A stretch of 64,000 bases of DNA from Candidatus Omnitrophota bacterium (GCA_024277375.1 JAJRVD010000025.1:19846-83845), one strand, 5' to 3'. Positions 23,521 to 55,529 are shown, counted from the first letter of the stretch. Program-made: numbers and translations. The notes: generated by a model from the letters alone, not told the origin.

Positions 23521-23532
23521 GACAGCCCCCCG

Positions 23533-23560
23533 GTAGGGACGTACTGCAATACGTCCCTGC
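23533..23560. repeat. REP-like palindrome type 3b
   Basis: GTAGGGACGTACTGCAATACGTCCCTGC between the macro-domain gene start and the upstream heptosyltransferase stop. Confidence 0.75.
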
Positions 23561-23590
23561 ATATTGTTTTATTCACTCCGTTACCTAATA

Positions 23591-31812: not shown

Positions 31813-31825
31813 AAGCTCTATTCTC

Positions 31826-31983
31826 TGTCATTCTGGCTGTGTCGTAATGTAAGGACTTGATTCATCAAGCCCGTTATGTCGGGTTCGCTAAGCTTGTCCC
31901 CGCGAAAGCGGGGATCGAACCCGATATAACATATTGTATACGGCCATTCGAAAAACAAATTGCGACACAGTCTGATCGCGAGG
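31826..31983 (+). repeat. MITE-like element, family A, copy 6, with a GC hairpin (TCCCCGCGAAAGCGGGGA) inserted in the core
   Basis: Arms conserved; the core centre is replaced or interrupted by a 21-bp GNRA-type hairpin; lies between lpxK and waaA. Confidence 0.75.
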
Positions 31984-37475: not shown

Positions 37476-37530
37476 ACATCACCCACTCCTTCACTTTAAG
37501 CCACAGAGCGCTTTATGCCTTAACACCCCT

Positions 37531-37745
37531 GTCATTCAGACTGTGTCATAATGTAGGGGCTTGATCCATCAAGCCCGTTATATCGGGTTCGATGAATCGA
37601 ACCCCTACAATATACTGTATGCGGCCACCCGCAAAACGAATTACGACACAGCCTCATTGCAAGGCCTGCAAGATAGAAGCAATCTCTAGATGATATCCTT
37701 CGACTCGGCCTCGCATGTCTCGACTTCGCTCAGGATAAATTCGAA
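37531..37745 (+). repeat. MITE-like element, family A, copy 7 (composite with type-2 tail)
   Basis: Core plus arms at 37531-37665, then AGCAATCTCTAGATGATATCCTTCGACTCGGCCTCGC...CGCTCAGGATAA; lies between dprA and the aroK-HD-GYP gene. Confidence 0.85.
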
Positions 37746-37787: not shown

Positions 37788-39302
37788 TTAAAAGACTCCT
37801 TTTCTGACCATATCAAGAAATATATCCGTAAGCCGGGGGTCAATTTTGTGACCTTTTTCATTTTCCATTATCGCTACCGCCTCATCGATAGAGAACTTTT
37901 CGCGATATGGCCTGTCTGCAGTTAACGCCTCATATATATCGGCTATGCTTAATATCCGCGCTTCCAGTGGGATCCGCCATCCCTTTCGTCCTTTAGGATA
38001 ACCCGAACCATCAAAATTTTCGTGGTGATTTACAATGATAGGTATGGTCTTACGCAGAAAATAGATCAGCCGTGCCATCTCGGCACCCCAGTAAGAATGC
38101 ATCTTCATCTGTCGAAACTCATTTTTTGTCAGCTGTTCTTTTTTGAACAAGATACTCTCTTCTACACCCAACTTCCCTATATCATGCAGAAGCGCTGCCA
38201 CTTTAAGCCTTTCTGTCTTCACTTTACTCAGTTTGATCTTTTTCGCCAGACTGGCGGCAAAGGTCTTAACCCTAGCAGAATGTTCAGCCACCCATGGCTC
38301 ACTTCTCATGCCGGCATCGAACAGTATACCCATCATTTCAAGATGCGCCGCATGCAGCTCTTTCGATGAAAGAGTATGACTTTTCGCGCTACTATCTACC
38401 GGATCCTCCTTTTCTCTTCCGACAAACATATAAAACACGGTTTTCTCTTCTTTTATGGGCACCACCAACCAGGAGATATATTTCCCGGAGACACCGGACG
38501 CGACAACAGGCATATCAAATTTAAAAAGCCTGTTTTTTCTTTTCATCTCTTTATTTATTTTCCACGCGTCGCCTCGCGCAGATTCGGGTATTATACCATT
38601 GATCCAGGACCGATTCATGATATCGTTTTCAAGAAGAGAGAACGCGGTTAAATATTTTTTGTTCACAAAAACAACCTGACCTTCGTTATCCACGAGCATT
38701 ACAGGGTATTTTATGTTCTGCAGCAATCTTTCAGAAAAATAACCCCAAAGAACGGTATTCTCTTCTAACCCCCGGCCTCTACCCTGTCGTCCTTCAAGGC
38801 GGTTACGCATAATATTCTTCACGCGATCTAAAACGATCGTAAGATCGAGTCCCGTAGTATCTATGTGATAGTTCGCTTTCTTGTAATATGGCCGACGATA
38901 TTCCAGAAGTTCTCTTATCATTTTCCGAGGATCATCAACTTCAAGAAGCGGCCTATGCGCATATTCTTTCGTTCTATCGTATATGGCGTCAACATCAGCC
39001 CATAGACATATAACAACACCAGTCCTACGAAGATCCTTCATATTTTGCCGATTCAAAACTACTCCACCGCCGGTGTCGATCACCTGATCCAATTTTGCCG
39101 AAACCTCTTTTACAACTTCTCGCTCGACCGTTCTGAAATATTCTTCACCTTCATCTCTGAAAATATCAGAAATAAGTTTGTCCTCCCGTATCTCTATGAG
39201 ATTGTCTACACTGACGTATTCCTTGCCCGTATCGTGAGCAAGCGCTTTGGCGATCTCGGTTTTCCCGGATCCCATAAAGCCTACAAGTACAATATTTTTC
39301 AT
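37788..39302 (-). CDS. shikimate kinase fused to PAS-like sensor and HD-GYP phosphodiesterase domain
   Basis: 504 aa; residues 1-175 are a complete AroK (GFMGSGKT Walker A, conserved shikimate-binding pattern); middle ~150 aa are PAS-like; the C-terminus carries HDIGK ... HHENFDGSGYP (HD-GYP signature). Confidence 0.75.
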   Translation of the reverse strand: MKNIVLVGFMGSGKTEIAKALAHDTGKEYVSVDNLIEIREDKLISDIFRDEGEEYFRTVEREVVKEVSAKLDQVIDTGGGVVLNRQNMKDLRRTGVVICLWADVDAIYDRTKEYAHRPLLEVDDPRKMIRELLEYRRPYYKKANYHIDTTGLDLTIVLDRVKNIMRNRLEGRQGRGRGLEENTVLWGYFSERLLQNIKYPVMLVDNEGQVVFVNKKYLTAFSLLENDIMNRSWINGIIPESARGDAWKINKEMKRKNRLFKFDMPVVASGVSGKYISWLVVPIKEEKTVFYMFVGREKEDPVDSSAKSHTLSSKELHAAHLEMMGILFDAGMRSEPWVAEHSARVKTFAASLAKKIKLSKVKTERLKVAALLHDIGKLGVEESILFKKEQLTKNEFRQMKMHSYWGAEMARLIYFLRKTIPIIVNHHENFDGSGYPKGRKGWRIPLEARILSIADIYEALTADRPYREKFSIDEAVAIMENEKGHKIDPRLTDIFLDMVRKGVF

Positions 39303-39331
39303 ATGCTCCCTTTTACATACTTTTTAGGCTT

Positions 39332-39504
39332 GTGCAAAACGCTGTTTTTTTTCAATCAGCCTGTGTCATGATGTAGGGGCTTGATTCATCAAGCCCGTTA
39401 TATCGGGTTCGATGAATCGAACCCCTACAATATGTTGTATGCGGCCATCCGCAAAACAAATTACGGTACAGCCTGAATGACGAGAATTCCATTTTGCACA
39501 AGTC
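39332..39504 (+). repeat. MITE-like element, family A, copy 8 (flanked by the 15-bp direct repeat TTACATACTTTTTAG)
   Basis: Inverted ends CTTGTGCAAAACG / CATTTTGCACAAG; identical 15-bp direct repeats at 39313-39327 and 39505-39519; lies between the aroK-HD-GYP gene and aroC. Confidence 0.88.
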
Positions 39505-40632
39505 TTACATACTTTTTAGTTGCTCCAAATATCCCTCGTAATTCCGGCGGATCTCTTTCATGGAGTCTCCGCCAAACTTCTCTAAAAATACGGCGCCAAT
39601 TTCTATAGCCACAGCCGCTTCGGCGATAACACCGCAAGCCGGAACCGCGGTTACATCAGAACGCTCCGTAGCGGCTTCCGCTTCCTTCTTCGTATCGATA
39701 TCAACAGTTTTTAACGGACTTGCCAAAGTCGCTATGGGCTTCATAAAAGCCTTTACTACAACCGGAGCTCCATTCGTAACTCCGCCCTCTATTCCTCCGG
39801 CATTGTTAGATTCTCGCGTGAACATTCTCCCCAAACTATCATATCCTATCGGATCATGCGTGAGCGAGCCCTTTCGCTACGCGCATTCTATTCCCTTTCC
39901 TATCGAAACCGCCTTTACCGCGGGTATTGCCATAACGGCACGTGCTATCCGACCATCCAACCTTCTGTCCCACTGCGCGTATGTCCCCAATCCCGGAGGG
40001 ATTTCAAGTACCGCGATCTCGATGGTACCACCCAAAGTATCACCGCAAATTTTCGCGTTATCAATGATCTTACGCATACTTTTCGCGGCATTCTTGTCCG
40101 CGCATCTAAGATCTGAAACTTCAGCGATCTTTTTTATTTCATCAAAGAAAAGTCCGTCGGTTTCCGCCTCGACGTTTCCTATCGCGGTAACATGGCTCAT
40201 TACATCAATACCAAATTCTTTAAATATCAATTTCGCGACAGCACCAACAGCGACTTTTATCGCTGTCTCTCGTGCCGAGGCTCTCTCCAGAACATCCCGG
40301 GCGTCTCCAAGAGCATATTTCTGCACACCGGCCAGATCGGCATGTCCGGGACGAGGACATTTTACATCAGGAAGTTTATCGATCTTATGATCCTTATTGC
40401 GTATCAAAAGCCCCACAGGACTGCCTATAGTAAACCCGCCTCGAATGCCGGTCACTACTTCGACCTTATCCCTCTCGATCTTCATCCGGCCGCCTCTACC
40501 ATACCCTACCATACGCCGGGTGAGCTCTTTGTTGATGAATTCTTCATCCATTTTGAGACCCGCGGGCACGCCGTCCAAAACCGCCATTAATCCCTTGCCG
40601 TGGGATTCTCCCGCAGTCATATACCTTAGCAT
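39505..40632 (-). pseudogene. aroC: chorismate synthase (aroC) interrupted by a single in-frame TAG at 39877-39879
   Basis: ORFs 39877..40632 and 39505..39834 share a frame. Read-through gives ...SIGKGIECA-TAG-RKGSLTHDPIGYDSLGRMFTRESNNAGGIEGG, collinear with the AroC consensus (GxGFxxAxxxGSxxxDxI...RSNxAGGIxGG). Total 376 codons. Confidence 0.8.
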
Positions 40633-40717: not shown

Positions 40718-40790
40718 TCATCGTGTCGTGTAGGGGTTCGATTCATCGAACCCAATATAACGGGCTTGATAAATCAAGCCCCTACATTAT
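40718..40790 (-). repeat. MITE-like element, family A, copy 9 (minimal core-only copy, reverse orientation)
   Basis: GTAGGGGTTCGATTCATCGAACCCAATATAACGGGCTTGATAAATCAAGCCCCTAC with short arms; lies between aroC and pilD. Confidence 0.75.
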
Positions 40791-40828
40791 GACGAAGCTA
40801 TCACTATAAACACCACTCTCCTACGTAA

Positions 40829-41640: not shown

Positions 41641-41684
41641 CACGTCGTACATCGCATAGCGTACATCATACAGCGTGTTCTCCT

Positions 41685-41885
41685 GTCATTCAGACTGTAT
41701 CATAATGTAGGGGCTTGATTTATCAAGCCCGTTATATCGGGTTCGATGAATCGAACCCCTACAATATGTTGTATGCGACCATCCGTAAAACGAATTACGA
41801 CACATCCTTAACCGAGGACATCGTTCCCGAGTAAGTCCCGGGACCAGAGGTTCTCGGGAAAGGGCCGAGTCAAAGGATCTCTTAT
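41685..41885 (+). repeat. MITE-like element, family A, copy 10 (composite with type-2 tail)
   Basis: Core plus arms at 41685-41806, then a tail ending GGGCCGAGTCAAAGGATCTC; lies between pilD and aroE. Confidence 0.82.
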
Positions 41886-42784
41886 TTGTCTCTCTTCAAC
41901 TCCGCCAAAACCGCTTCTTTCATAACTTTTTTCGTCTCTTCAAGAGGCTTCCCCGTCCATATATTAAAAGCAATGGCCGCCTGGTTGATCAGCATACCCA
42001 ATCCATTAACCGCTGTGAGCCCTTGTTCTTTCGCGGTTTTTAGAAGCCTCGTTTCCCGGGCATAGACAAGATCATATACTGTCATCCCCTCTCTTAAACA
42101 CTCAAGAGGAACAGCCGAACGATCATCCCCCTCTTTCGTTCCGATCGGGGTCGCGTTTACAACAAGTTCGCATTAGGCCATTCTTCCGGAAATATCTTTT
42201 GCCTCAACAGGGACGCACGCGTCCGGCCCAAACTGCTTCTTGCAAACAGTTGCCAATTGACAAAGTAGATCCTCTTGCGAATCATAAAGAAATATTTCTT
42301 CAGGTGCCGCCTCACCGATAGAAGCAAGATACATGCACAGAGCTCGCCCCGCCCCGCCGGATCCAAACAGAAAAACCTTTTTACCTTTGGGGTCAAATCC
42401 CGCGTCTTCTTGCAATGATTGATAAAACCCTTCCACGTCAGTATTATACCCCTTAACCTTTTCACCATCACTCCTGACGGTATTGACAGCACCCAGCAAT
42501 TCCGCTTCGCTATCTATAGTACACTTCTGTCCGGATTTCAGCATATCAAACACGGCTATCTTATAAGGTACCGTAACATTAATACCACCAATATTGTTGT
42601 CCTTGATAAGACTCAAGAAATCCTTATCTATATGTTTTGCTCTGGTGTCAAAATCTCTATCGAAAAGTTTATATTCGGTTGGTATGCCAAAATGGGCAAG
42701 CGCCGCATTATGCATGACGGGAGACAAAGAATAGCTTATATTCTTCCCAAGAAGACCGTATACTTTAGCGTTGACGTTCGACAT
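41882..42784 (-). pseudogene. aroE: shikimate dehydrogenase (aroE) interrupted by a single in-frame TAA at 42173-42175
   Basis: ORFs 42173..42784 (N-terminal substrate domain; Rossmann GSGGAGRA) and 41882..42085 are in the same frame. Read-through gives ...DISGRMA-TAA-CELVVNATPIGTKEG...MTVYDLVY..., matching the AroE consensus DLVVNATxxGM. Confidence 0.8.
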
Positions 42785-42834: not shown

Positions 42835-43030
42835 CAATCTCTGCAAAAATAATGTTTTATGGGGATTGCCGCGTCATCATTCGCTTTGCAAATGAACTCC
42901 TCGCATTCAGGCTGTGTCACAAGTCACTTTATGAAAGCTACATACAACATATTGCAGGGATTCATTTATCAAACCCGATATAACGGGCTTGATAAATCAA
43001 GCCCCTACATTGCGACACAGCATGAATGAC
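42835..43030 (-). repeat. MITE-like element, family A, copy 11 (degenerate, reverse orientation)
   Basis: One core half is retained (GATATAACGGGCTTGATAAATCAAGCCCCTAC); the other half is degenerate; the arms carry the CAAGTCACTTT...ACATACAACAT subfamily sequence; lies between aroE and leuA. Confidence 0.65.
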
Positions 43031-43037
43031 AATACAT

Positions 43038-44588
43038 CTATTTCTTGCTTGTTTTCTTTTTCGCCTTAGTGGCTTTCGCCGAAAGGCGATTAACGGCATT
43101 TATGTATGCTCTAACACTTGCCTCTATAACATCGGTACTGGAACCTCTGCCCATTACGATCTTTTTGCCGAAAGACACCTTCACGCTGGCTTCTCCAAGC
43201 GCGTCTTTGCCGCTGGTAACAGCGTTTATTCTGTAATCTACAAGTTTGCCCTTTTGGCCGATAGCTTTATCGATGGTCTTGAAACAAGCGTCAACGGGAC
43301 CATCACCCGTCGCGGTGGCTGAAAGTAGTTTTTTGTTTTTTTTAAGATCTACAGTGGCTAAAGGATCTACCTTATTACAACTAGTCACCTGAAAATTAAC
43401 AAGTTTATACTCTTCGGTAACCGTAGCGAGGTCATCTTCCACGATAGTAGCGAGATCTTCATCGTATATTTCAGCTTTTTTGTCAGCAAGGGTCTTGAAT
43501 CGCGCGAAGGCCTGGTCGAGTTCTTTATCAGAAAGAAAATATCCGAGTTTTTTCAACCGGGCTGATACCGCGTGACGTCCTGAAAGTTTTCCGAGGACTA
43601 TCTTTGAGCCCGAAAACCCGACATCCTGAGGCCTTATGATCTCATATGTAACGCGTTTTTTCATCACACCGTCTTGGTGTATCCCGGATTCATGGCTGAA
43701 AGCGTTCTCGCCGACGATAGCTTTGTTGGGCTGGGGGTTTATCCCGGTTAACTTGGCGACCAATTTACTTGTCTTATATAATTCTTTCGTAATGATCCCG
43801 GTCGTTATTCCCTTGAATATATCCTTACGCATCTTGACGGCCATAATAACTTCTTCAAGAGCGGCGTTACCCGCTCTTTCTCCCAGGCCGTTAATGGTAC
43901 ACTCTATCTGACGCGCGCCGTTCAAAACCGCTTCTAAAGAATTGCTTACCCCAAGCCCCAGGTCATTATGACAATGTACGCTTATTACCGCCTTACCGAT
44001 ATTGCTCACATTTTCATTGAGATATCGTATAAGGCTCCCAAATTCGCCGGGCACGGCATAACCTACGGTATCCGGAATATTGACCGTCCGCGCTCCGGCG
44101 GCGATAACCGCCTCCACGACTTCCGCGAGAAAATCGGGTTCCGTTCGCGACGCGTCCTCGGGGGAGAATTCAATATCCGAAATTTTCTTACGGGCATATT
44201 TTACCGCGTCCACTGAAGCCTTAAGTATCTCGTCTTTAGCTTTATTAAGCTTATATTTTCGATGTATACTCGAAGTTGCCAGAAAAACATGTATCCTGGC
44301 CCTTGCGGCTTTCTTAAGAGCCAGATAAGCGTCATCTATATCTCTTTTGGTCGCCCGGGCCAAACCACATATTATCGGTTTTTTGACGTGCTTTGAGACA
44401 GTCTTTACCGCGTCAAGATCTCCCGGACTGGTACGCGGAAACCCCGCTTCGATAACGTCAACACCCAGAGTTTCAAGCTGAAGCGCGATCTTTAATTTCT
44501 CATTCGCGTTCAGACTCGCTCCGGGTGTTTGTTCGCCATCCCTTAAAGTCGTATCAAAAATGATAACCTTGTCTTTCTTCATGATCAA
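43038..44588 (-). CDS. leuA: 2-isopropylmalate synthase
   Basis: 516 aa; HMGL-like TIM barrel (LRDGEQ) plus C-terminal LeuA dimerisation/regulatory domain. Confidence 0.95.
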   Translation of the reverse strand: MIMKKDKVIIFDTTLRDGEQTPGASLNANEKLKIALQLETLGVDVIEAGFPRTSPGDLDAVKTVSKHVKKPIICGLARATKRDIDDAYLALKKAARARIHVFLATSSIHRKYKLNKAKDEILKASVDAVKYARKKISDIEFSPEDASRTEPDFLAEVVEAVIAAGARTVNIPDTVGYAVPGEFGSLIRYLNENVSNIGKAVISVHCHNDLGLGVSNSLEAVLNGARQIECTINGLGERAGNAALEEVIMAVKMRKDIFKGITTGIITKELYKTSKLVAKLTGINPQPNKAIVGENAFSHESGIHQDGVMKKRVTYEIIRPQDVGFSGSKIVLGKLSGRHAVSARLKKLGYFLSDKELDQAFARFKTLADKKAEIYDEDLATIVEDDLATVTEEYKLVNFQVTSCNKVDPLATVDLKKNKKLLSATATGDGPVDACFKTIDKAIGQKGKLVDYRINAVTSGKDALGEASVKVSFGKKIVMGRGSSTDVIEASVRAYINAVNRLSAKATKAKKKTSKK

Positions 44589-44649: not shown

Positions 44650-44815
44650 TGTCTCAAGTCACTTTGCAAAGAACAACATACAACATAACATACAACATAC
44701 TGTAGGAGTTTGATTTATCGAACCCGATATATCGGGCTCGATAAATCAAGCCCCTACATTGCAACACAGACTGATCGCGAGGAGCACAGCAACGAATCAA
44801 TCTCTACGATATGTG
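44650..44815 (-). repeat. MITE-like element, family A, copy 12 (subfamily variant, reverse orientation)
   Basis: Core variant GTAGGAGTTTGATTTATCGAACCCGATATATCGGGCTCGATAAATCAAGCCCCTAC; shares the CAAGTCACTTT / ACATACAACAT arm with copy 11; right extension GAGCACAGCAACGAATCAATCTCTACGATA; lies between leuA and ilvC. Confidence 0.75.
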
Positions 44816-44857: not shown

Positions 44858-45847
44858 TTAGTCCATCCAAGGCATCATACCGCGCAGCTCTTCGCCGACT
44901 ATCTCTATCTGATGTTTCTTTTCCTCTGATGTTATCTTATTATAATTCGGACGCCCCGCTTCATTCTCTTTGATCCATTCCTCAGCAAATTTACCGGACT
45001 GCACTTCACCAAGGATCTTTTTCATCTCATCACGTGTTGCCTGATTGATGACCCTTTTACCTCTTGTGATGTCGCCATATTCGGCCGTATCCGAAACCCT
45101 GGATCTCATACCTGAGATACCATTTCTATAAATGAGGTCTGTTATGAGCTTTAACTCATGCAGACACTCAAAATACGCGATCTCCGGCTGATATCCAGCT
45201 TCAACCAAAGTATCAAAACCGGCTTTTATAAGTTCCGAAGCACCCCCGCAAAGTACTGCCTGTTCCCCGAAAAGGTCCGTTTCGGTTTCCTCGGTAAAAG
45301 TTGTCTCAATAACACCGGCTTTTGTTCCGCCGATCGCCTTGGCATAAGCCAGAGCCTTGTCCTTCGCTTTACCGCTGGCATCCTGATAGATCGCGATAAG
45401 AGCCGGAACACCTTTACCCTGTTCGTACATCTCTCTTACCAAAGCACCGGGCCCTTTAGGAGCGACCATTATAACATCCACATTTTCAGGCGGCACGATC
45501 TGCTTGAAATGTATGTTGAACCCGTGCGAAAAGGTAAGCGTATTACCTTCGAGGAGATTAGCCTCGATAGCGTTCTTATAAACCGAAGCCTGAACATGGT
45601 CCTGGGTCAATATCTGGATTATATCGGCCTGCTTTGCCGCCTCGGAAGCTGAAATAACATCAAAACCATCTTTCTTTGCCTGTTCATAGTTAGGGGTGCC
45701 TTCCAGTTCACTGACCAGAACATCAATACCACTGTCTCTCAGGTTAAGCGCCTGCCCACGGCCCTGTATACCGTAGCCGATTATCGCTACCTTTGAATCC
45801 TTGATCACATCAAGCTCCGCGTCTTTATCATAGTACATCTTCGCCAT
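44858..45847 (-). CDS. ilvC: ketol-acid reductoisomerase
   Basis: 329 aa; class I KARI ([17 protein letters not shown]). Confidence 0.95.
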
Positions 45848-45903
45848 CTCACTTCCTCCTTTTTACTAGCGCTCATGCTTCATGCACAATACACTTTTTC
45901 CCC

Positions 45904-45985
45904 GTCCATTCAGACTGTATCATAATGTAGGGGCTTGATTCATCAAGCCCGTTATATCGGGTTCGATAAATCGAACCCCTACATT
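45904..45985 (+). repeat. MITE-like element, family A, copy 13 (right arm truncated)
   Basis: Left arm plus full core; ends 3 nt before the ilvH TAG stop; lies between ilvC and ilvH. Confidence 0.8.
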
Positions 45986-45988
45986 ACG

Positions 45989-46474
45989 CTATTCACTATC
46001 CGACCGCAAAGCTATCTTTCCGGTCCTCACGATCTCCAAAATTCCATAGGGACGTACCAGCTCCACAAGAGCTTTTATCACATGGTCATCCCCTGACTCT
46101 TCAACAGTAAGAGACTTCTTACCGACATCCACTATCTCCGCACCGGTAGTGTCAACAACTTTTACGATCTTTTCCCTGACCTTAGTATCCGGCGCCTTGA
46201 CCTTTATCAGTATAAGCTCTCGCCCGATATGCTCTCCCTCGGTAAGGTCCTGCACGCTAATGACATCTATAAGTTTATTAAGCTGTTTCTTTACCTGTTC
46301 CAATATCTTCTCATCCGCCGCCACGACTATTGTCATCCTTGATGTATCAGGATCTTCCGTTTCACCTACCGCTAACGACGTAATGTTAAACCCCCGTGCG
46401 GAAAAAAGTCCGGCAACCCTCGCCAAAACACCAAACTTATTTTCTACTAAAACTGATAGTACAAATTTAGACAT
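45989..46474 (-). CDS. ilvH: acetolactate synthase small (regulatory) subunit
   Basis: 161 aa; ACT domain plus C-terminal ALS_ss_C; TAG stop abuts a truncated MITE. Confidence 0.9.
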   Translation of the reverse strand: MSKFVLSVLVENKFGVLARVAGLFSARGFNITSLAVGETEDPDTSRMTIVVAADEKILEQVKKQLNKLIDVISVQDLTEGEHIGRELILIKVKAPDTKVREKIVKVVDTTGAEIVDVGKKSLTVEESGDDHVIKALVELVRPYGILEIVRTGKIALRSDSE

Positions 46475-46502
46475 TATTACTCCTTAGCTTTCAGTCTTAG
46501 AC

Positions 46503-46675
46503 TCATGCAAAACGCTGTTTTTTCAATCAGACCGTATCATAATGTAGGGGCTTGATTCATCAAGCCCGTTATATCGGGTTCGATAAATCGAACCCCTACA
46601 ATATCTTGTATGCGGCCATCCGCATAACAAATTACAACACAGGCCGAATGACGAAAGTTCCGTTTTGCAAAACCC
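46503..46675 (+). repeat. MITE-like element, family A, copy 14 (full length)
   Basis: Outer ends ATGCAAAACGCTG / CCGTTTTGCAAAA; flanking CAGTCTT / AGCTTTCAG direct-repeat motifs on both sides; lies between ilvH and ilvB. Confidence 0.88.
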
Positions 46676-46738
46676 TATTCAGTCTTCAGCTTTCAGCCTT
46701 CAGCTGCTGATAGCTGAAAACTGATAGCTGATAGCTCA

Positions 46739-48433
46739 CTACGCCAATCCGTGTAACATCTCGCTTATCGACTTACCTGCCGGTACCATCGGGAACACGT
46801 TCTCTTCCCTTTCTATGACGAAATCCAGTATAACCGGCCCTTTAGCCTTCAATGCTTCCTTAATTGACTTTTTTACATCTTCTTTTTTCTCGATCCTTAT
46901 ACCCTTGGCGCCGAAACTTTCAGCTAACTTCACAAAGTCCGGACATACGGTACCTTTTTCCCCGCCCACAACTGTCCAGGCATAACGCTTATCATAAAAT
47001 AGTTCCTGCCATTGACGTACCATACCAAGATAACCGTTGTTAAGTATCACAATAATGACAGGTATCTTCTCAAGAACCGCGACCGCCATCTCCTGGATGT
47101 TCATCTGAATACTACCGTCACCGGCAATATCAAAAACAATTGCTTCAGGTTTTCCTATCTTAGCGCCTATCGCCGCAGGAAAACCGTAACCCATAGTACC
47201 CAATCCACCACTCGACACTAACGTCCGTGGTTTTGTATACGTATAATGCTGTGCGGCCCACATCTGATTTTGACCAACTTCGGTGGCTATGATAACCTCT
47301 TTATCTTTGGTCATGTCATGTATCGTCTCGATAATGTACTGCGGCCTCAACTTGTCGTCATCCTTATATTTGAGCGGCAACTCTTTTTTCCACTCAGAGA
47401 TCATTTTGTGCCACTCTTCACGTTCTTTTTTTGTTATCATGGTGTTAAGTTCTTTGAGTATTGCCTTAGCGTCCCCGATAACCGGGATATCAACCTGCAC
47501 ATTCTTACTTATACTCGAAGGATCCACGTCAATATGCGCGACTTTAGCATTTGGCGCAAATTCATCTATCCGCCCTGTAACCCTGTCATCAAACCTGGCA
47601 CCGATCGCTATAATAAGATCCGAAGACTGTATGGCATGATTCGCGTACGCCGTTCCATGCATACCCAGCATACCAAGACTTAATGGATCATCTTCAGGAA
47701 AAGCGCCCAACCCCATCAACGTAGTCGTAACAGGTATATCCGTTTTACGCGCCAGACGTGTAAGCTCTTTATCCGCACCCGAAAGAATTATTACGCCGCC
47801 GGCATATATGATCGGGCGTTTACTTTTCTCGATAGCTTTGGCTATCTTTTTTATCTGACCGGAATGCCCCGTACAAGTCGGGTTATAACCTTTAAGCTTC
47901 CGCAAAGACGGTTCTTTGAATTCGGTCGTATTAACCTGAACGTCAACAGGTAAGTCTATCAGCACAGGACCGGGCCTCCCGGTTCTAGCTATATGAAAAG
48001 CTTCTTTTACCACTTGCGCGAGATCTTTTACATCCTTAACCAGATAGTTATGTTTTGTAATAGGACGTGTTATCCCGACCATATCAACTTCCTGAAAAGC
48101 GTCATTGCCTATGAGGCTTGAATTTACCTGTCCGGTAATGGCGACAAGAGGGATCGAATCCAAATGTGCCGTCGCGATACCTGTAACCAGATTAGTCGCG
48201 CCGGGTCCTGAAGTAGCTATACATACCCCGACCTCACCCGTAGCGCGCGCGTACCCGTCAGCGGCATGAATAGCTCCCTGTTCATGTCGGGTCAGATGGA
48301 ACTTTATCTCCTCCACACTGTAAAGTTTGTCCGCTAAAGGGATTATAACTCCACCAGGATAACCGAAAATATGTTTAACCTTCTCTTCCAACAACATCTT
48401 GATCAAGATCTCAGCACCGGTAATTTTAGTCAT
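46739..48433 (-). CDS. ilvB: acetolactate synthase large subunit
   Basis: ThDP-dependent enzyme (GDGSIQMNIQE). Start at MTKITGAEIL (ATG 48431-48433); the ORF-track extension to 48511 covers a type-4 repeat. Confidence 0.92.
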   Translation of the reverse strand: MTKITGAEILIKMLLEEKVKHIFGYPGGVIIPLADKLYSVEEIKFHLTRHEQGAIHAADGYARATGEVGVCIATSGPGATNLVTGIATAHLDSIPLVAITGQVNSSLIGNDAFQEVDMVGITRPITKHNYLVKDVKDLAQVVKEAFHIARTGRPGPVLIDLPVDVQVNTTEFKEPSLRKLKGYNPTCTGHSGQIKKIAKAIEKSKRPIIYAGGVIILSGADKELTRLARKTDIPVTTTLMGLGAFPEDDPLSLGMLGMHGTAYANHAIQSSDLIIAIGARFDDRVTGRIDEFAPNAKVAHIDVDPSSISKNVQVDIPVIGDAKAILKELNTMITKKEREEWHKMISEWKKELPLKYKDDDKLRPQYIIETIHDMTKDKEVIIATEVGQNQMWAAQHYTYTKPRTLVSSGGLGTMGYGFPAAIGAKIGKPEAIVFDIAGDGSIQMNIQEMAVAVLEKIPVIIVILNNGYLGMVRQWQELFYDKRYAWTVVGGEKGTVCPDFVKLAESFGAKGIRIEKKEDVKKSIKEALKAKGPVILDFVIEREENVFPMVPAGKSISEMLHGLA

Positions 48434-48465
48434 ATAACTCCTCTCTGCACTATGTGTACCCGATT

Positions 48466-48511
48466 CCGTAGGAGCGGTATCACAGCACCTTCGGTGATGG
48501 GCCGCGAACAA
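48466..48511 (+). repeat. type-4 repeat copy
   Basis: CCGTAGGAGCGGTATCACAGCACCTTCGGTGATGGGCCGCGAACAA in the ilvB leader. Confidence 0.7.
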
Positions 48512-48673
48512 ATAAATCAGGAATCTATCTCCCCCCTGTCATTCCCGCGAAAGCGGGAATCTATTAATATTAATAGTCAGTTCCTATTAAATCAGGAAAC
48601 CAAGGATTTTACAATTACATAAGTATAACACAAGAAATTATGTTGTCAAGCGCTTCTCGGGGAACAAGAATGG

Positions 48674-48701
48674 GTAGGGGCACGGCATGCCGTGCCCCTA
48701 C
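48674..48701. repeat. REP-like palindrome type 3a
   Basis: GTAGGGGCACGGCATGCCGTGCCCCTAC, a perfect palindrome immediately left of MITE copy 15. Confidence 0.8.
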
Positions 48702-48709
48702 AAATAATT

Positions 48710-48928
48710 TGTCATTCAGGCTGTGTCGTAATGTAGGGGCTTGATTCATCAAGCCCGTTATATCGGGTTCGATAAATCGAACCCCTACAATATATTGTAT
48801 GCGGCCATCCGCAAAACGAATTGCGACACGGCCTGATTGCGAGGAGGAGCGGAACAACGACGAGGCCGAGGAACAACGTTTCCGAGGTCATCCTGAGACC
48901 AGAGAGTCTCAGGGCGGCAATCTCTAAA
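48710..48928 (+). repeat. MITE-like element, family A, copy 15 (composite with type-2 tail)
   Basis: Core plus arms at 48710-48850, then GTCATCCTGAGACCAGAGAGTCTCAGGGCGGCAATCTC; lies between ilvB and the giant ORF. Confidence 0.85.
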
Positions 48929-49011: not shown

Positions 49012-52000
49012 TTACACCGATCGCCAGACTTCTGACGTCGCCGCGAAGATCTCCTTGATCATACCCATATCCACTTTTGTTATCGCCGGCAATGCCAGGT
49101 TAAAAACTATTTTAACGAAATCTCCTATACCTTTGGAATTAAATGCCTCTACTAATTCTTTCTCGAAATCCTCGATGCTATTCGCATTGTTAGTCGCACG
49201 CGCTAATGCCCTGGCCTTTAGCCTTACGGCGTCTTCCTGGTCTTTCGGTGTTGCTCTATTTTCCTTAGCAAGATTTGCCACATGTCCCAAGTTAAGATTG
49301 GCAAATGATACGCCCATCAAACTGCCGTACGGCATCACAGCCGCAGGATCTTCCGCATTCTCTTTATCCTTCCATATCGTAAGCATAGTATTTTCATTAA
49401 GAAAATCTTCTACACTTTTCTCTCGCGTCAAATCTTTCAACGCCTCTAACTTCTCTAATTCTTCAAGTACCGATCTGGCTATCTGAAGATCTATCCGGGT
49501 ACGGCTATCATCTTCCCCCTTAAACGCGTCAATAGCTTCGCGAATAATTTTTTCAGCTTCATTCGTACCCATTGTATTTCTTAATCTTATGTTACCTTCC
49601 TTGCCCAAATCATGTTCGGCTATAAAGTTGTTTCCGCTGCTTTTCAAAGCGGTTAATCGTGACGCGAATTCCACTTGCGTCACCCCTTCCGGCTTGCCAC
49701 CCGCGATTATACCGTAGCACGGGGGTAGATCTTTACTCATAACTTCAGCGACATCCATTGCAGACGCTTCGACACCCTTCGTCATTGCTTCTTTGACCTC
49801 GTCTTTATTTCCTTCATACGGCTTGCTGCCATCGATGGTCACAGAATCATCGGTTACATTAAATTCTACAACATCCACAGCTTCAAGCTCATCCAAAAAT
49901 TGTTTCCTTATATTGTGATACCGACGTATTATACCGTCAGCCGTATCATCACTTGTTGCTACGAGCCGGACACCATTAAATACGACACTAGACATATCAC
50001 CCGGCAGAAGGTCCTCTACCATTCGGCTAGCAATACTTTCTATTGTTTCATCGGCATCCGGTATCACCTTGAACATCTGGGGCCCATCACCTTCCGACGC
50101 TATTATCTCTTTGGCGCGCGCCAATACCATGTTCTGTCGTTCGATATCAGTTATATCGTTCATCTCAAGAAACCCTACAATATCTGATTCAGCTTTAAAA
50201 ACTTCTTTATAATTATCCGGAAAAATTCTTGCAGCGTTGAGAGAATATATTTCTTCTGCCAAAATGACGGCGTCTTTGAATCTTTGTGTCAATATCAGTG
50301 CAAACGCGTTTTCTTTATCTGACAAACCGGAGATCTCTGCTCTTGCCGTAGATTCTTCAACAAGTTTCTCTCCCTGCGGAGACAAGATCTTTTTAGCCAG
50401 CTTCAATATCTTATCCTGACGTGTACTCTCTCTTATATTGTATTTTTCAAGAAAACTTACGACAGCGTCTTCAGCTTTCCTAGCTGGGGCACCCCAATCC
50501 CTTGCGATAGCAGCATCACCATAAATTCCTTCCGCTAAATTGACATCTCCCCGCTTACCAAAGGGGGATTGTGCTAATAACCTGGCTAAAATGGTATCAT
50601 CCAAATTTTTAAACTTATGATCAGGTAAATTCCCATCATATAATATCTTGTTCAAACTAATCGTCTGCGCGTACATCAATACTATGTCCTGTATCAACTT
50701 TGGAACATCCTTATCTTCAGTATTTTTAATTAGCTGAGGTGAGATATAGAGCTTTCCTGCTTCAAAATATATACCATCCATAATGCCAGCGGTATCGGAG
50801 GGCCTTAGCTCTTTTTCTGCGAACGGAATAGCGATATTCTGTCCACTAGATATGTCTGCAAGCACAAACTCAATTATTTTATTAACAACCGTTTTCGCAT
50901 CCAGAGTCTCATTAATGCCTATTTTTTTAAGAAGCTCTTTCTCCATCCGTTTTGTCATCTGCTCACGATTGTGATTTAATAGCTTGCCCATATCATCCTG
51001 CATATACCTCAGTCCTTCGATCAACCTGAATGCCACACGAACAGTTTTTCCATTAAAGAACATATTGCCATACCATGCGCTTAGTTGCATCTCTTCAAAC
51101 GCGCGGATCAGCTCATTTGCTTTTGCCCTGATAGACACAACCTCTTCCGGAGCATTCAAATACCTGGGATTTATGTATATCACACCATCGTTTTGATGCA
51201 TTGTATACTTCGTCAGGTCCGTAAGATTCTGGTTGTTTAAAACGTCTATATTTGAGGCTCTCTCCATGCTGTTCCTTCTCAACATGTCCGCGACATCTCT
51301 CGCTACCAAATCGAGACTACTCATCTTTACTATTTCATCGAACAGCTTCTTGCCTTCTCCTCCTTCAAGATCTAAAAAGTCAGAGCCATATATTCCAACC
51401 GCTTCCCTATGTAATAAGCCCTGATGACTCTCTGCCGCTAATACAGCAATGGCTTCTGTAACTTTCTTGTCCCTCGTAAATTCTTCCCCGTCCGCTCTTG
51501 CCTGCTCCTCAGCTACCAAGTCTAACTGTGCGAACTCATCTAAGCCTTCAATCACATCACTTCTTTCTTTCACTTCATGGTACAATTGTCTGCTGATCTC
51601 CTCTAAATTTCCCGCATCAAACAATTCCTGTGGTAAATATATCTGCGCTCTCGAAACGCCATAATGTCCGCTCCTTAAACCTGGCACAATTATGATCTGC
51701 ACATCCTTCAATAAACTAGTTCTATTTGGCAGCCCGCCTATAACCTCAACCAATAGCCTCATTTGAGCCGGAACCAATCCGGGAGTTTCATTTTGCTTAA
51801 ATGTTTCTCCAGTTTTTCCGTCGGTTTTCACATAAGATTGGACTATCTCGCCATCATCAAACTGATAGGAAGTGGTTAACCCGTCTTTGAGCGGTTTTTC
51901 GATCCACCTTTTATACTCCTTGTTGTCCAACCCCTCCACGCCGCGGCCGTAGGCAAATTTATTGGAAGTTACATTGCTCTTCTTAGCCTGATAATAATGA

Positions 52001-53844
52001 TTTTGTGTTCCCCCCCTTAATATCCTGTCTCCCTCTCTGATCTCTTCCAGTTTTATCAACATATCATCTCTCAAGCCCTCTTGTGGCTTTGGTCTTGCGC
52101 GGCTGACCACTACAAAAAGATCATCCCCCCACTTCTCTTTGAACAACTCCACGCCGGGAGCAGCATTTCTCCAATCTTTTATCATTTTTTCTATTCGCAA
52201 CAACTTCTCATTCTCCTCAATAAAATCCATCCCATCCATATTCTTTTTTATGTTCCGGATAGTTTTGGCCAACTCTATTACGTTATCGGTAAAGTCTTCC
52301 GAAGACACATCCGCGAATCCATCCACTTTTGCCAGACCCGTCAACTGTTCAAACAGATCCACGCCATAGGCAAAATCCCTGTCTCCACCTTTTTCTATTC
52401 GGTCTCCTTCCATAGCAAGATTAATTATTTCCATAGCGTCCATATCCATGCTCTCGCTGTGTTTAATGCTATATGCCGCGCCTGTTTCATGTATTAAAAC
52501 TTCCGCTAATTGCGTATAATCTTGTAACAAATCCGGGTTCAGATATATCGTTTCGTAACTGGCATGGCCACTTACAGGTATTGACTTGTTCCAAATTTGT
52601 ATGTCCTGTTTCATGATAAAATCTATCTGGGATTCTTCTAACCTTAAACTACGAAGAGCAGCTTTTAGTTCCTCCAGGTCTTCGCCCTGCTCCCCAAACT
52701 TATGCATTCCTGCCTCTTTCCCTAATGCGTCTATCCATACTTCATGCTGCAGATACGTCATCGTGTCACCGTCTACAAGAACAATGTCTATGAAGTCCGC
52801 CATACGCCGAATATCCTTATCTGTTTCTACGTAAATATCGACCCCTATTAGAAGCCCTACATCCATAGCAAACCCGGTATCCGAATGTCTTGGTGCTATG
52901 TATGTGGTATCATAATCGGCCGAATGAATGTCTATCCACCCAAACTTGGTCTTAATCGTCAACGTTTCGTTTTTGGCTAACGCTTCCGCTGCCTTGACCA
53001 TCAACTCCATCATATTTTTATTTCTCACATCTATACCCATCTCAGAAAACAGGCTCTGTACGGCTATGGTAGAAGCTCCGGGGGTATAAGAGACCGCTTT
53101 GGTTATAAGCTCCTCGAAGGGCGACTTTTCGCCCGCCAGAAGAGCAAAATACGGACTGTCTTCCTCAACTTGAAGGCGTGGCATTACCTCGATGTATGAG
53201 TATCCTTCTTTTTCAAAGAGTTCCGCCAGGTTTTCCGTATGGAATCCCCCTGTTACAAGAACGGCTATTTTTTTGTCACCGAACTTAGCTCCGATATTCT
53301 TTAAAAACGCGTCATCCCTTTTGAATGCATAGTCATAGAATCCTTCCATATGTTCTCTATAGGAATCTAGTTTTGCTATACCAGAAGGAGTTGTTAGTTT
53401 CAGGCCGTACTGCGGAGCCTTCGCGTCAAAAAAGGCGGTAAAACATTTAACTCCGAACCCGTCTCTGTTGGCCTTGTAATACTCATACTTGTCCCTGACA
53501 AGTGAAAGTGCGAAGAGATCCTTAAGTATGCTCAGTTTTTTTGAAAGTTCGATGAGCCTCTCCTGATCAGGAGTTTTCGCGAACGTCTTCATAAGAGCCT
53601 CTTCTATTTTCCGTACGTCCTTATTAAGGGACGCTTTATCAATATGTTCATAATTTTTCACATATTCAGCATATTTAACAAGGTTGGGCAACTTGCTAAA
53701 GTCTACCGACGCGAATTCCGCTTTCTTAAAAAGATATACATAAAAATCTTCGGATGAAATGTCACCGGTCTTGAACGCGATGGTCTTAACAGCCAGACGT
53801 TTGGCGGCTTTTCTGGATAGTTTTTTGGTAAGTTTATCGATCAA
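49012..53844 (-). CDS. giant hypothetical protein (1,610 aa in this ORF)
   Basis: Uninterrupted 4.8-kb ORF with coding-like composition and no recognisable catalytic motif; a rho-independent terminator follows at 48925-48967. The ORF-track start is a TTG with no RBS, and the ORF is in frame with the upstream ORF 53959..54702. Confidence 0.6.
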   Translation of the reverse strand: MIDKLTKKLSRKAAKRLAVKTIAFKTGDISSEDFYVYLFKKAEFASVDFSKLPNLVKYAEYVKNYEHIDKASLNKDVRKIEEALMKTFAKTPDQERLIELSKKLSILKDLFALSLVRDKYEYYKANRDGFGVKCFTAFFDAKAPQYGLKLTTPSGIAKLDSYREHMEGFYDYAFKRDDAFLKNIGAKFGDKKIAVLVTGGFHTENLAELFEKEGYSYIEVMPRLQVEEDSPYFALLAGEKSPFEELITKAVSYTPGASTIAVQSLFSEMGIDVRNKNMMELMVKAAEALAKNETLTIKTKFGWIDIHSADYDTTYIAPRHSDTGFAMDVGLLIGVDIYVETDKDIRRMADFIDIVLVDGDTMTYLQHEVWIDALGKEAGMHKFGEQGEDLEELKAALRSLRLEESQIDFIMKQDIQIWNKSIPVSGHASYETIYLNPDLLQDYTQLAEVLIHETGAAYSIKHSESMDMDAMEIINLAMEGDRIEKGGDRDFAYGVDLFEQLTGLAKVDGFADVSSEDFTDNVIELAKTIRNIKKNMDGMDFIEENEKLLRIEKMIKDWRNAAPGVELFKEKWGDDLFVVVSRARPKPQEGLRDDMLIKLEEIREGDRILRGGTQNHYYQAKKSNVTSNKFAYGRGVEGLDNKEYKRWIEKPLKDGLTTSYQFDDGEIVQSYVKTDGKTGETFKQNETPGLVPAQMRLLVEVIGGLPNRTSLLKDVQIIIVPGLRSGHYGVSRAQIYLPQELFDAGNLEEISRQLYHEVKERSDVIEGLDEFAQLDLVAEEQARADGEEFTRDKKVTEAIAVLAAESHQGLLHREAVGIYGSDFLDLEGGEGKKLFDEIVKMSSLDLVARDVADMLRRNSMERASNIDVLNNQNLTDLTKYTMHQNDGVIYINPRYLNAPEEVVSIRAKANELIRAFEEMQLSAWYGNMFFNGKTVRVAFRLIEGLRYMQDDMGKLLNHNREQMTKRMEKELLKKIGINETLDAKTVVNKIIEFVLADISSGQNIAIPFAEKELRPSDTAGIMDGIYFEAGKLYISPQLIKNTEDKDVPKLIQDIVLMYAQTISLNKILYDGNLPDHKFKNLDDTILARLLAQSPFGKRGDVNLAEGIYGDAAIARDWGAPARKAEDAVVSFLEKYNIRESTRQDKILKLAKKILSPQGEKLVEESTARAEISGLSDKENAFALILTQRFKDAVILAEEIYSLNAARIFPDNYKEVFKAESDIVGFLEMNDITDIERQNMVLARAKEIIASEGDGPQMFKVIPDADETIESIASRMVEDLLPGDMSSVVFNGVRLVATSDDTADGIIRRYHNIRKQFLDELEAVDVVEFNVTDDSVTIDGSKPYEGNKDEVKEAMTKGVEASAMDVAEVMSKDLPPCYGIIAGGKPEGVTQVEFASRLTALKSSGNNFIAEHDLGKEGNIRLRNTMGTNEAEKIIREAIDAFKGEDDSRTRIDLQIARSVLEELEKLEALKDLTREKSVEDFLNENTMLTIWKDKENAEDPAAVMPYGSLMGVSFANLNLGHVANLAKENRATPKDQEDAVRLKARALARATNNANSIEDFEKELVEAFNSKGIGDFVKIVFNLALPAITKVDMGMIKEIFAATSEVWRSV

Positions 53845-53958
53845 AGCCCGACGTTCCCTGTTGGCTTTTTTAAAATCAATAGACTTTTCGTCCCCAAGCA
53901 GTTTAAGAAGAGCATTAACATCCGCGTGTTGCTCAATATCTACACCGTTAGCCTTACT

Positions 53959-54702
53959 TTACTTCGCTAGAAAAGTTACATATTCTTTAAACTCAATTTT
54001 TTTCCCATTATATGCCATACGTTTTCCATCAACAACTTTAAGAGCCGACGTGTATATCTTGCGCTTTAAATTACTCATCCCGTTCTCTAAAAATTTTAGG
54101 TATCTATCGGCATCCTCTTTAAACGCCAGCGAACTCCTGTAAGCGTTTAAGTTTCCAAAATATAACTCTTCATTTTCGATCCCTGAAAGCTCGATCTTGT
54201 ATGGATTGTTTATAGCGAAGAATTCGGCACCTGTAACACGTCCGGCTTTCACAAATAAGTCGGATACCTGTTCTCTTACCTGTCGGTCACGTATGTCGGT
54301 AAACATCGACAGGTCATACTCGCCCGCTCCCCCTTCAAGAAACGCGAGATCCGCGCCATAAGCTTCATTGGTATACTTCATGAGGTTGGCGATAGATCGT
54401 TGGGCGGAATAGTTACAATGGGCGTCCTGGATGTGGATGATCGTTTTACCATTCTCACCGGAGATCCTGCGTTTTATCTCTCCAAAACGTAGCGGCACCG
54501 TAGAGGAGGCGGGGTCGAATTCCTCCCGGGCATATACCTCGCCTCCCGGGATACCGGCAATAATTCCCGGCACCTCGACAGCAGCGATGGCTCTAGCCAG
54601 ATCCGCGCCTATCATTGTGAACGAAAAAGAACACAGCGTAATTATCGCGAATGTTCTCATCAGCGTCTTTCTGAGACCGGTTTTATTATTAGAATAACAC
54701 AT
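53959..54702 (-). CDS. hypothetical secreted protein (possible N-terminal part of the giant protein)
   Basis: 247 aa; N-terminal signal/TM segment; strong AGGAGGA RBS before ATG 54702; same frame as 49012..53844, separated from it by one TAA plus 38 stop-free codons. Confidence 0.55.
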   Translation of the reverse strand: MCYSNNKTGLRKTLMRTFAIITLCSFSFTMIGADLARAIAAVEVPGIIAGIPGGEVYAREEFDPASSTVPLRFGEIKRRISGENGKTIIHIQDAHCNYSAQRSIANLMKYTNEAYGADLAFLEGGAGEYDLSMFTDIRDRQVREQVSDLFVKAGRVTGAEFFAINNPYKIELSGIENEELYFGNLNAYRSSLAFKEDADRYLKFLENGMSNLKRKIYTSALKVVDGKRMAYNGKKIEFKEYVTFLAK

Positions 54703-55290
54703 GGTTCCTCCTGAAAGTTTTTAAACGACCTTAATTAGTTTGCAAAAAAATATCGTCCAGATCACCTAAATTATTTCACTTAAACGCGCTATGCGCATCT
54801 ACATATTAGTTTACCTAATAGACTAGAATTTACAAACTTTATAATCGTACTTTTTCATATCTAACCATAGCGTGGCCCTCATATCGGGGCCCATCCTGGG
54901 GCCAGGCCCCAAGGGGCCACCCCTGAGCACAAAAAATGGCCGATATTCTAACTTTTTCGCTTAACAGACGCCCCTGCTACCGATTGGTGCAGGCCACAGC
55001 TGTCCGGTAAAAATTTCTACGAGGATCTTTCGTGTTTATTTCATCAAGAGGCAGAACGATTTAACAGTGTAACCTCAATATTTATAGCAATCACCAAATA
55101 AATTGTTTTCGTATCGTATGCTGTCCAATAAATTTCTCGCAAACAATGTCCCGGGTAAATCCACAGTACCAGGTTCCCGTAATCACAGAGCCTCTTATAT
55201 GAGGGGGTGTGCCGCGCGCAGGCACGGAAAAAAGGGAAAATGTTTCCGTTTTTACGCATGTTTGAGCACGGTATACCCCCTCAGATACAA

Positions 55291-55405
55291 ACTGTGTCGT
55301 AACGTAGGGGCTTGATTTATCAAGCCCGTTTATATCGGGTTCGATGAATCGAACCCTTACAACATATTGTATGCGGCCATCCACAAAACGAATTACGACA
55401 CAGCC
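55291..55405 (+). repeat. MITE-like element, family A, copy 16
   Basis: Arms ACTGTGTCGTAACGTAGGGG / ATTACGACACAGCC; core with minor substitutions; lies between the giant-ORF upstream region and alr. Confidence 0.82.
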
Positions 55406-55529
55406 TCTCATATAAGGAGCCTACCTATTTATGAAGAGATTCTTCAGTCGCTATCGCTCCTTCAGAATGACGAATTTTTACGATTTCCCCGAACAGGTGT
55501 GGGTGCAAACTGAAAATCATACAAAAAAA

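Follow-up and report, generated by a model that had tools for sequence, protein, structure and literature searches.

GTAG-headed palindromic repeats inserted at the junctions of a compact ilv-leu-aro operon in an Omnitrophota bacterium

In a 64,000-nucleotide stretch of DNA from Candidatus Omnitrophota bacterium (GCA_024277375.1, JAJRVD010000025.1:19846-83845; hereafter the window), the operon genes ilvB, ilvH and ilvC are held apart by long spacers that carry palindromic repeats. What are these repeats, how did they come to lie between the genes of an operon, and do they serve it? The Omnitrophota are a phylum of uncultured, possibly host-dependent nanobacteria. An earlier note on this DNA had read the repeats as MITEs (miniature inverted-repeat transposable elements) inserted within classical operons, whose stable hairpins could act on the mRNA. 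We find a family of GTAG-headed palindromes, flanked in its full-length form by target duplications and inserted into an ancestrally compact operon. We consider it likely that they are non-autonomous, selfish mobile elements specific to this Omnitrophota lineage.

The window has a G+C content of 44% and an extreme strand bias, with about 51 of its ~52 genes on the minus strand across 64 kb. Gene identities and coordinates were checked with Pfam, and the genes and spacers at the center of the question are the following.

46739-48511, minus strand: ilvB, acetolactate synthase large subunit, as open reading frame (ORF)
46475-46738: ilvB-ilvH spacer, 264 nt
45989-46474, minus strand: ilvH/ilvN, acetolactate synthase small subunit
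45848-45988: ilvH-ilvC spacer, 141 nt
44858-45847, minus strand: ilvC, ketol-acid reductoisomerase
43038-44588, minus strand: leuA

Beyond leuA lie aroE, pilD, aroC, an aroK-PAS-HD fusion and dprA. The whole array, big1610-ilvB-ilvH-ilvC-leuA-aroE-pilD-aroC-aroK-dprA, is co-oriented, as had been claimed. The TTG listed as the ilvB start (48511) is probably wrong, because relatives start at the position matching an ATG at 48433, which is probably the true start.

A 56-nt core repeat occurs in 16 copies in the window, all of them intergenic. The 24-nt motif of its left hairpin, searched with up to three mismatches, matched 16 times in the window and never in 100 shuffles. Every one of the 16 was also recovered by an nhmmer profile made from ten long copies (E-values 1e-22 to 1e-61). 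The copies account for nearly all window spacers of 173 nt or more, and each of the nine consecutive junctions from dprA to big1610 holds one. The two spacers flanking ilvH contain these features:

46498-46677, plus strand: copy 14, full-length type A, ilvB-ilvH spacer; outer terminal inverted repeats (TIRs) with termini TAGACTCATGCAAAA (left) and TTTTGCAAAACCCTA (right)
46524-46543 and 46631-46653: inner TIR of copy 14
46544-46599: core of copy 14
46600-46630: 31-nt hairpin module of copy 14
46490-46497 (left) and 46678-46685 (right): target-site duplication TTCAGTCT of copy 14
46678-46738: heptamer tandem arrays, TTCAGCT x3 and GCTGATA x4.4, forming a hairpin of ~25 bp directly after the ilvB stop codon
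45904-45988, plus strand: copy 13, short form, ilvH-ilvC spacer
45904-45926: left inner TIR of copy 13
45927-45982: intact core of copy 13, including the right hairpin
45983-45988: right inner TIR of copy 13, reduced to the 6-nt ATTACG

The 264-nt spacer and its full-length copy are exactly as first described. Copy 13 is also present where it was placed, but the reported loss of its right arm was overstated: core and right hairpin are intact, only the inner repeat is truncated, and the remnant ATTACG abuts the ilvH stop codon (45989-45991) without a gap rather than ending 3 nt before it. The heptamer hairpin at 46678-46738 is probably the pre-insertion spacer, with the type-A element having landed in one of its arms.

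The invariant core reads GTAG-GGGCTTGAT-NN-ATCAAGCCC / GTTATATC / GGGTTCGAT-NN-ATCGAACCC-CTAC. It consists of two inverted hairpins separated by 8 nt, each headed by an unpaired GTAG; either partner has an 8-9-bp stem and a 2-4-nt loop. The partners differ at two stem positions (C-G vs T-A and T-A vs C-G), and each difference is compensated within its own hairpin. Across 18 aligned cores, 99.2% of cells form standard pairs in a two-hairpin model, compared with 90.3% in a single long helix, and the GTAG tag is conserved in 16-17. Left and right hairpins are paired head to head in 15/16 copies; the exception is a rearranged copy at 31849. Perfect GTAG-headed hairpins number 32 in the window, in five sequence types, against 2.5 in shuffles and 0-2 per 20 kb in relatives. 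The core is a head-to-head (HH) heterodimer of GTAG-tagged repetitive extragenic palindromic (REP) hairpins, which is the arrangement of a REPIN (REP doublet forming hairpins).

The core is surrounded by inner 23-nt inverted repeats (CGTCATTCAGRCTGTGTCATAAT and its complement ATTACGACACAGCCTGAATGACG), and an optional 31-nt module with a small hairpin (AATATATTGTATGCGGCCATCCGCAAAACGA) lies to its right. As a whole the copies are mosaics, with outer shells of two or more kinds. Type A comprises five copies, including that between ilvB and ilvH, and its shell bears TIRs of 15-16 nt (TAGRCTYNTGCAAAA and its complement AAGGRTCCTGCAAAA). These copies are non-coding, 166-182 nt long, and flanked at a fixed distance from the TIRs by target duplications of 8-11 bp, which are exact in four of the five (direct repeats of 9-15 nt, p <= 0.01 each) and imperfect in the fifth. 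Small, non-coding, and with TIRs and target duplications, they fit the definition of a MITE. The upstream shell of type B is another one (GTAGAGATTGCTTCGGTTGCTGTGCTCCTCGCGATCAG), and from one type to the other the interior is turned around with respect to the shell ends. We saw no target duplication around type-B copies or short forms. The MITE label thus suits the ilvB-ilvH copy, with its TIRs and target duplication, but the conserved core identifies a REPIN-type unit rather than a generic MITE.

If the repeats were inserted, relatives should offer a view of the operon without them. IlvC-based retrieval of loci assigned the organism to Candidatus Omnitrophota and showed that the order ilvB-ilvH-ilvC-leuA-aroE-pilD-aroC-aroK-HD-dprA is conserved in ~25 Omnitrophota loci. 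The closest relatives are L001 (IlvC 85% and IlvH 80.5% identical) and L081-L084 (IlvH 86% identical). Their ilvB-ilvH spacers measure 35-49 nt and their ilvH-ilvC spacers 24-40 nt; at the other junctions the genes overlap (to -4 nt) or are separated by at most 38 nt, apart from one gap of 118 nt. A profile search found no copy of the repeat in these loci or in the other retrieved relatives. Because the relatives share the gene order, have short spacers and lack the copies, the copies are lineage-specific insertions into a compact operon. That the repeats were inserted and mobile was a claim of the earlier note, and it is borne out by L001 and L081, which have the same gene order, ilvB/ilvH/ilvC spacers of 24-49 nt and no copy. 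The target duplication between aroC and aroK takes in the end of aroC, its stop codon together with the final codons before it. Since the duplicated segment includes that stop codon, the spacer before insertion was 10 nt, which agrees with the spacing in relatives.

The remaining copies are listed here.

48692-48868, plus strand: type-B copy, big1610|ilvB, followed at 48674-48701 by a simple GTAG palindrome, GTAGGGGCACGGCATGCCGTGCCCCTAC
44689-44782, minus strand: divergent copy, leuA-ilvC spacer, core reversed
42881-43038, minus strand: divergent copy, aroE-leuA spacer, core reversed
41666-41828, plus strand: type-B copy, pilD-aroE spacer
40728-40794, minus strand: short decayed copy, aroC-pilD spacer
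39325-39506, plus strand: type-A copy, aroC|aroK; target duplication ACATACTTTT, matching exactly over 15 nt altogether
37513-37698, plus strand: type-B copy, dprA-aroK spacer
31820-31983, plus strand: rearranged copy, lpxK-kdtA spacer; right hairpin broken by the small palindrome CCCCGCGAAAGCGGGG
21174-21353, minus strand: type-A copy, trxA|pfkB; target duplication AATATGTAAT
14839-15028, plus strand: type-B copy, queF-queE spacer
11738-11843, plus strand: copy in hpf-lptB spacer; 21-nt tandem duplication in left hairpin, right-hand modules lacking
9589-9754, plus strand: type-A copy, tig|clpP; target duplication GTACAGCGTAT
7593-7758, plus strand: type-A copy, class-V aminotransferase gene|serA; imperfect target duplication TAACATGTA / TAACGTGTA
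55269-55426, plus strand: type-B copy, 827-nt spacer downstream of alr (alr|unk247)

The copies previously placed at leuA|ilvC, aroE|leuA, pilD|aroE, aroC|pilD and tig|clpP are all there. To these we add the copies at aroK|aroC, dprA|aroK, ilvB|big1610, serA|aminotransferase, hpf|lptB, queF|queE, trxA|pfkB, lpxK|kdtA and alr|unk247. Several copies are decayed, truncated, rearranged, internally duplicated, nested, or interrupted by other small palindromes. The first in-frame ATGs of pfkB (21203) and queF (14862) fall within the element terminus ...CTGAATGACG; both ORF starts are probably false, because mechanically assigned starts run into the repeat.

Exact 41-nt and 48-nt core patterns had no match in GTDB species representatives or JGI metagenome contigs, sets in which neither the source genome nor its repeat family is represented, and the core pattern had none among viral contigs or plasmids. 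A degenerate core pattern identified only three single-copy metagenome contigs, from other Omnitrophota. One copy lies between ftsW and murG and is flanked by a 14-nt direct repeat (contig L087); another lies upstream of tsaE and is flanked by a 23-nt direct repeat that contains the tsaE ribosome-binding site (RBS) and first codons (contig L085); the third is downstream of recJ. In both flanked contigs the direct repeats sit at the level of the core.

Other small repeats share this landscape. The simple GTAG palindrome GTAGGGGCGTATTGCAATACGCCCCTAC occurs at 8938-8967, 21366-21395 and 23532-23561. It is also present at 9258-9285 of L021, a distant relative (IlvC 71% identical), where it sits in the ilvB-ilvH spacer, so REP types are shared between Omnitrophota lineages, including those without the doublet family. 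At 7771-7790, the class-V aminotransferase gene takes its TAG stop codon (7787) from the GTAG head of a GTAGGGGCACGGCGCCGTGC palindrome. Heptamer tandem repeats are common in intercistronic spacers, both in the window (46678-46736, 44673-44700, 41646-41676, 9750-9790) and in L002 (3724-3826, 4336-4412, 5442-5587, 10315-10436), L003, L017 and L021, and are often paired with a roughly complementary array to form a hairpin. Period 7 dominates in the Omnitrophota loci (69 arrays, vs 11 of period 6 and 20 of period 8). L002 has a heptad hairpin at nearly every junction of the same operon, with the antisense RNA 5-26 kcal/mol more stable than the sense RNA, and in L021 heptad arms enclose a GTAG palindrome. 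These arrays recall the cyanobacterial STRR (short tandemly repeated repetitive) sequences and the Beggiatoaceae TAACTGA repeats (PMC4679880). Unrelated hairpin-forming repeats occupy the same operon junctions in other Omnitrophota; this recurrence, together with the clustering of our copies in the operon, is compatible with permissive sites, local hopping or selection.

The best promoter-like site between 36 and 50 kb, and the only strong one of sigma-70 type, is upstream of ilvB:

48622-48649, minus strand: TTGACA-N16-TATACT with extended TG, 11/12

Its place upstream of ilvB and its conservation make it the likely operon promoter: TTGACA-N16-TGTTATACT is conserved in L001 and L081, in the shared form cTTGACAA-N13-TGTGTTATACT. 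An ATAGGAA motif just downstream is conserved in the window and in both relatives. The ilvB leader, from the promoter to the ATG at 48433 (region 48433-48720, minus strand), is about twice as long as in relatives. In it lie the small palindrome TTCCCGCTTTCGCGGGAA, a motif of the element terminus, and the remnant of a REP of the GTAGGAGCGG type. On the sense strand, the hairpins of copies 13 and 14 are not followed by the U-tract of an intrinsic terminator. Terminator-like features, and weak ones, are confined to the reversed copy (40762-40781) and the simple palindrome (48674-48701). Given a conserved promoter ahead of ilvB and hairpins that lack a U-tract, read-through of the elements appears the likeliest state, in keeping with the polycistronic transcription proposed before. 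Intrinsic terminators and sigma-54 promoters, also considered as identities for the repeats, were rejected on sequence and synteny.

As RNA, the spacers are predicted to be highly structured. The 264-nt spacer folds at -117.1 kcal/mol (z = -11.2), leaving the ilvH RBS unpaired, and the 141-nt spacer at -55.4 kcal/mol (z = -7.4). The core alone prefers one long hairpin that makes use of G-U pairs (-37.8 kcal/mol sense, -32.8 antisense) over the two-hairpin form (-26.1 kcal/mol); as single-stranded DNA it prefers the two hairpins. The stable double hairpins of the earlier note are therefore correct for single-stranded DNA, but the predicted minimum-energy form of the RNA is a single long hairpin. 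No Rfam family matched the window at gathering thresholds, and permissive thresholds over 45700-48800 yielded chance-level matches only (E = 0.36 and 0.7).

These observations suggest the following course of events. Elements would have inserted into the short intercistronic spacers of the compact ilvB-ilvH-ilvC-leuA-aroE-pilD-aroC-aroK-HD-dprA operon, usually just upstream of the next gene's RBS, and coding sequences and RBSs would be intact for that reason. With transcription running on from the conserved ilvB promoter, each element would form in the mRNA a long, nearly perfect duplex, with a core of 27-31 bp at about -38 kcal/mol. Duplexes of this kind are cut by RNase III and block 3' exonucleases. 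They would probably alter how the operon transcript is processed and decays, as a side effect and not as a selected function.

To look for selection at the RNA level, the folding of sense and antisense strands was compared. In raw energies the sense strand is the more stable in 12/16 spacers. This advantage arises because the sense strand is G+U-rich; measured against dinucleotide shuffles, the two strands show the same folding excess, and we rejected the sense-strand advantage as a sign of function once composition was controlled. No covariation was found among the 18 cores under either the two-hairpin or the long-hairpin model, although variation is too low to be informative. The core is oriented 12:4 relative to transcription (two-sided p ~0.08), and shell orientation is inconsistent between subfamilies. 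In relatives' spacers, sense and antisense were the more stable in 24 and 17 cases, with no consistent bias. We found no sign of selection for an RNA role. An effect of the elements on the mRNA is plausible by analogy. The proposal that they serve as stability, processing or attenuation determinants for the host finds no support in these computations, given the orientation ratio, the strand-equal folding excess and relatives that do without the elements; as an analogy it remains reasonable.

These results bear directly on the strongest alternative, that the repeats are domesticated RNA punctuation, providing RNase III or RNase E sites or barriers to 3' exonucleases that set the stabilities of individual cistrons. 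Several observations favor it. The predicted RNA structures are very stable, the elements lie between co-oriented genes with the downstream RBS unpaired, nine of nine junctions are occupied, and unrelated hairpin repeats sit at the same junctions in other Omnitrophota. Precedents exist in the REP sequences of E. coli operons and the Correia elements of Neisseria (PMC2649163, PMC3733652). However, the sense-strand folding advantage vanishes with composition control, the uninformative cores offer no covariation, orientation is mixed, sense RNA has no stability advantage over antisense across relatives, and the closest relatives have kept spacers of 24-49 nt without any element. We regard domestication as unlikely, though less so than the other alternatives. 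Mixed orientation, a folding excess equal on both strands, and copies that are decayed, truncated, rearranged or nested indicate selfish rather than selected elements.

Three observations nevertheless weigh against selfish mobile REP doublets. First, Pfam searches of 57 window ORFs found no transposase and no RAYT (REP-associated tyrosine transposase) in the 64 kb; the only tyrosine recombinase is an XerC-like gene beside topA. Second, GTAG REPs are thought to be moved by RAYT (HUH) transposases, which should not duplicate their targets, and duplications of 8-23 nt were observed. Core and shells may each be mobilized by an enzyme of their own, or the whole mechanism may be of another kind. The duplications weaken the inference of a RAYT but not the structural classification as REP, because the REPIN insertion mechanism is itself unproven. 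Third, with 16/51 junctions occupied, a run of nine consecutive occupied junctions has P = 1.5e-4 at random, which could reflect targeting or selection rather than neutral accumulation. A bolder hypothesis is that Omnitrophota GTAG-REP doublets insert by a non-HUH/RAYT mechanism that makes 8-23-bp duplications, are aimed at intercistronic spacers, often at pre-existing heptamer hairpins, and are kept as RNase III-type punctuation that uncouples cistrons. We consider this combination a long shot.

Slightly less probable still, in our estimation, are portable promoters or insulators, in which an outward TTGATG-N16-TATGAT motif (towards the left arm), a weak terminator, or both would split the operon. 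The motif matches at 9-10/12 and, in the 12 copies with plus-strand cores, points to the gene downstream; the reversed copy (40762-40781) was scored as terminator-like, and Correia elements are known to create promoters (PMC2649163). Set against this, promoter-like sites within the array number 22, compared with 24.3 in shuffles; the motif is a weak match beside the conserved ilvB promoter (11/12) and is embedded in a strong palindrome, and 4/16 copies point the other way.

DNA-level host sites, bound or cleaved by gyrase, IHF/HU-like proteins or DNA polymerase I and so organizing supercoiling between genes, are improbable. The core as single-stranded DNA favors a two-hairpin, cruciform-like form, and the heterodimer design preserves each small hairpin; the BIMEs (bacterial interspersed mosaic elements) of E. 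coli offer a precedent in the passages of PMC3733652 and PMC2817692 that cite it. Yet no protein-binding motif was identified in the elements, no feature separates a host site from recognition by a transposase, and the relatives lack the elements. Integron-like attC sites between cassettes, or an assembly artefact, would account for imperfect palindromes of similar size between co-oriented genes. Both can be dismissed with near certainty: attC sites are rejected by housekeeping genes whose order is conserved in ~25 Omnitrophota loci without the repeat and by the absence of RYYYAAC/GTTRRRY ends and of an integron integrase, and the copies are not collapsed or duplicated assembly errors, because they differ in sequence, subfamily and unique flanks and carry target duplications.

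The window has other features of note. At 37788-39302 a single 504-aa ORF encodes shikimate kinase and a PAS-HD domain protein as a fusion; the two are separate genes, adjacent or overlapping, in L001 and L081. Between alr and ilvB (49012-54702) lie two ORFs, of 1610 and 247 aa, that match no Pfam family, and because alr is directly upstream of ilvB in L081 the pair looks like a lineage-specific insertion. A small thioredoxin-like ORF with a WCGPC motif (21395-21725, minus strand), between a GT9 gene and pfkB, was identified by eye only, being below the 120-aa ORF cut-off. Single in-frame stops on the minus strand interrupt tig (TAG, 10346-10348), aroC (TAG, 39877-39879) and aroE (TAA, 42173-42175). 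The three genes are otherwise well conserved, with same-frame homology resuming past each stop; AroC is 69% identical to that of L001 over all 373 residues. These stops could be recent pseudogenes, sequencing errors or read-through, and, taken with the expansion of the repeats, would be in keeping with genome decay.

We conclude that selfish insertion is the likely history of these palindromes. A 10-gene operon that is compact in two relatives has a palindromic element at each junction here, a natural before-and-after case in which the effect of the elements on operon mRNA is directly testable, given metatranscriptomes or heterologous expression. Target duplications around a REP doublet bear on how REPINs insert. 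At such density, repeats of 90-190 nt break short-read assemblies and create false start codons, as for pfkB and queF. They also extend GTAG-REP/REPIN-type repeats to the Omnitrophota, where such repeats have not been described before.

That REPs lie between genes of one operon and affect its mRNA has been known since the 1980s, and the repeats here are of a known bacterial kind (REP/REPIN/MITE), with Omnitrophota as a new example. The nearest match is the GTAG-tagged REP HH heterodimer defined by Di Nocera, De Gregorio and Rocco in 2013 (PMC3733652), along with the REPINs of Bertels and Rainey, 2011 (PMC3116915). Both share with our elements stems of 8-9 bp, loops of 2-4 nt, an unpaired GTAG tag, an inverted two-unit design with the tags outside and differing partner stems, and the ability to fold as two hairpins or one long hairpin. 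Like the HH family, ours are extragenic, lie mostly between unidirectional genes, and come with several REP types per genome, one of which supplies a TAG stop (here to the aminotransferase gene; cf. PMC3733652). They differ in belonging to a phylum that those surveys did not cover, in a spacer of only 8 nt, and in having one or two TIR layers around the dimer; for Anabaena variabilis, GTAG dimers lying inside longer palindromes are reported (PMC3733652). A further difference from REPINs is the 8-23-nt direct repeats, not predicted by the RAYT (IS200/IS605-like) mechanism.

Compared with bacterial MITEs in general (reviewed in PMC10969869, PMC2229807), type-A copies have the expected 166-182-nt non-coding body, 15-16-nt TIRs, target duplications, multiple copies, and AT-rich intergenic targets. 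Their interior, however, is a REP dimer and not a deleted insertion sequence (IS), type-B and short forms show no target duplication, and subfamilies differ in which way round the interior lies in the shell. No parent IS with matching TIRs was found in the window, and plasmid, viral, genome and metagenome collections gave no match. The Correia repeat enclosed elements (CREE, also NEMIS) of Neisseria produce RNA that is an RNase III substrate and can create promoters (PMC2649163). They resemble ours in size (~100-190 nt), frequent co-transcription with neighbors and a long RNA hairpin, but there is no sequence relation. CREE duplicate TA, against 8-11 nt here, and have an IHF site and 26-bp TIRs; our elements lack the defining Correia features, and the analogy is functional only. 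The BIMEs and REPs of the E. coli malEFG and hisJQMP operons, as cited in passages of PMC3733652 and PMC2817692, are transcribed and stabilize upstream mRNA segments. Like the repeats here, they place inverted REPs, in mosaic clusters, among the genes of a single operon. The sequences and module sets are different, and here one element occupies each junction of a 10-gene array whose counterparts in the closest relatives are entirely free of elements.

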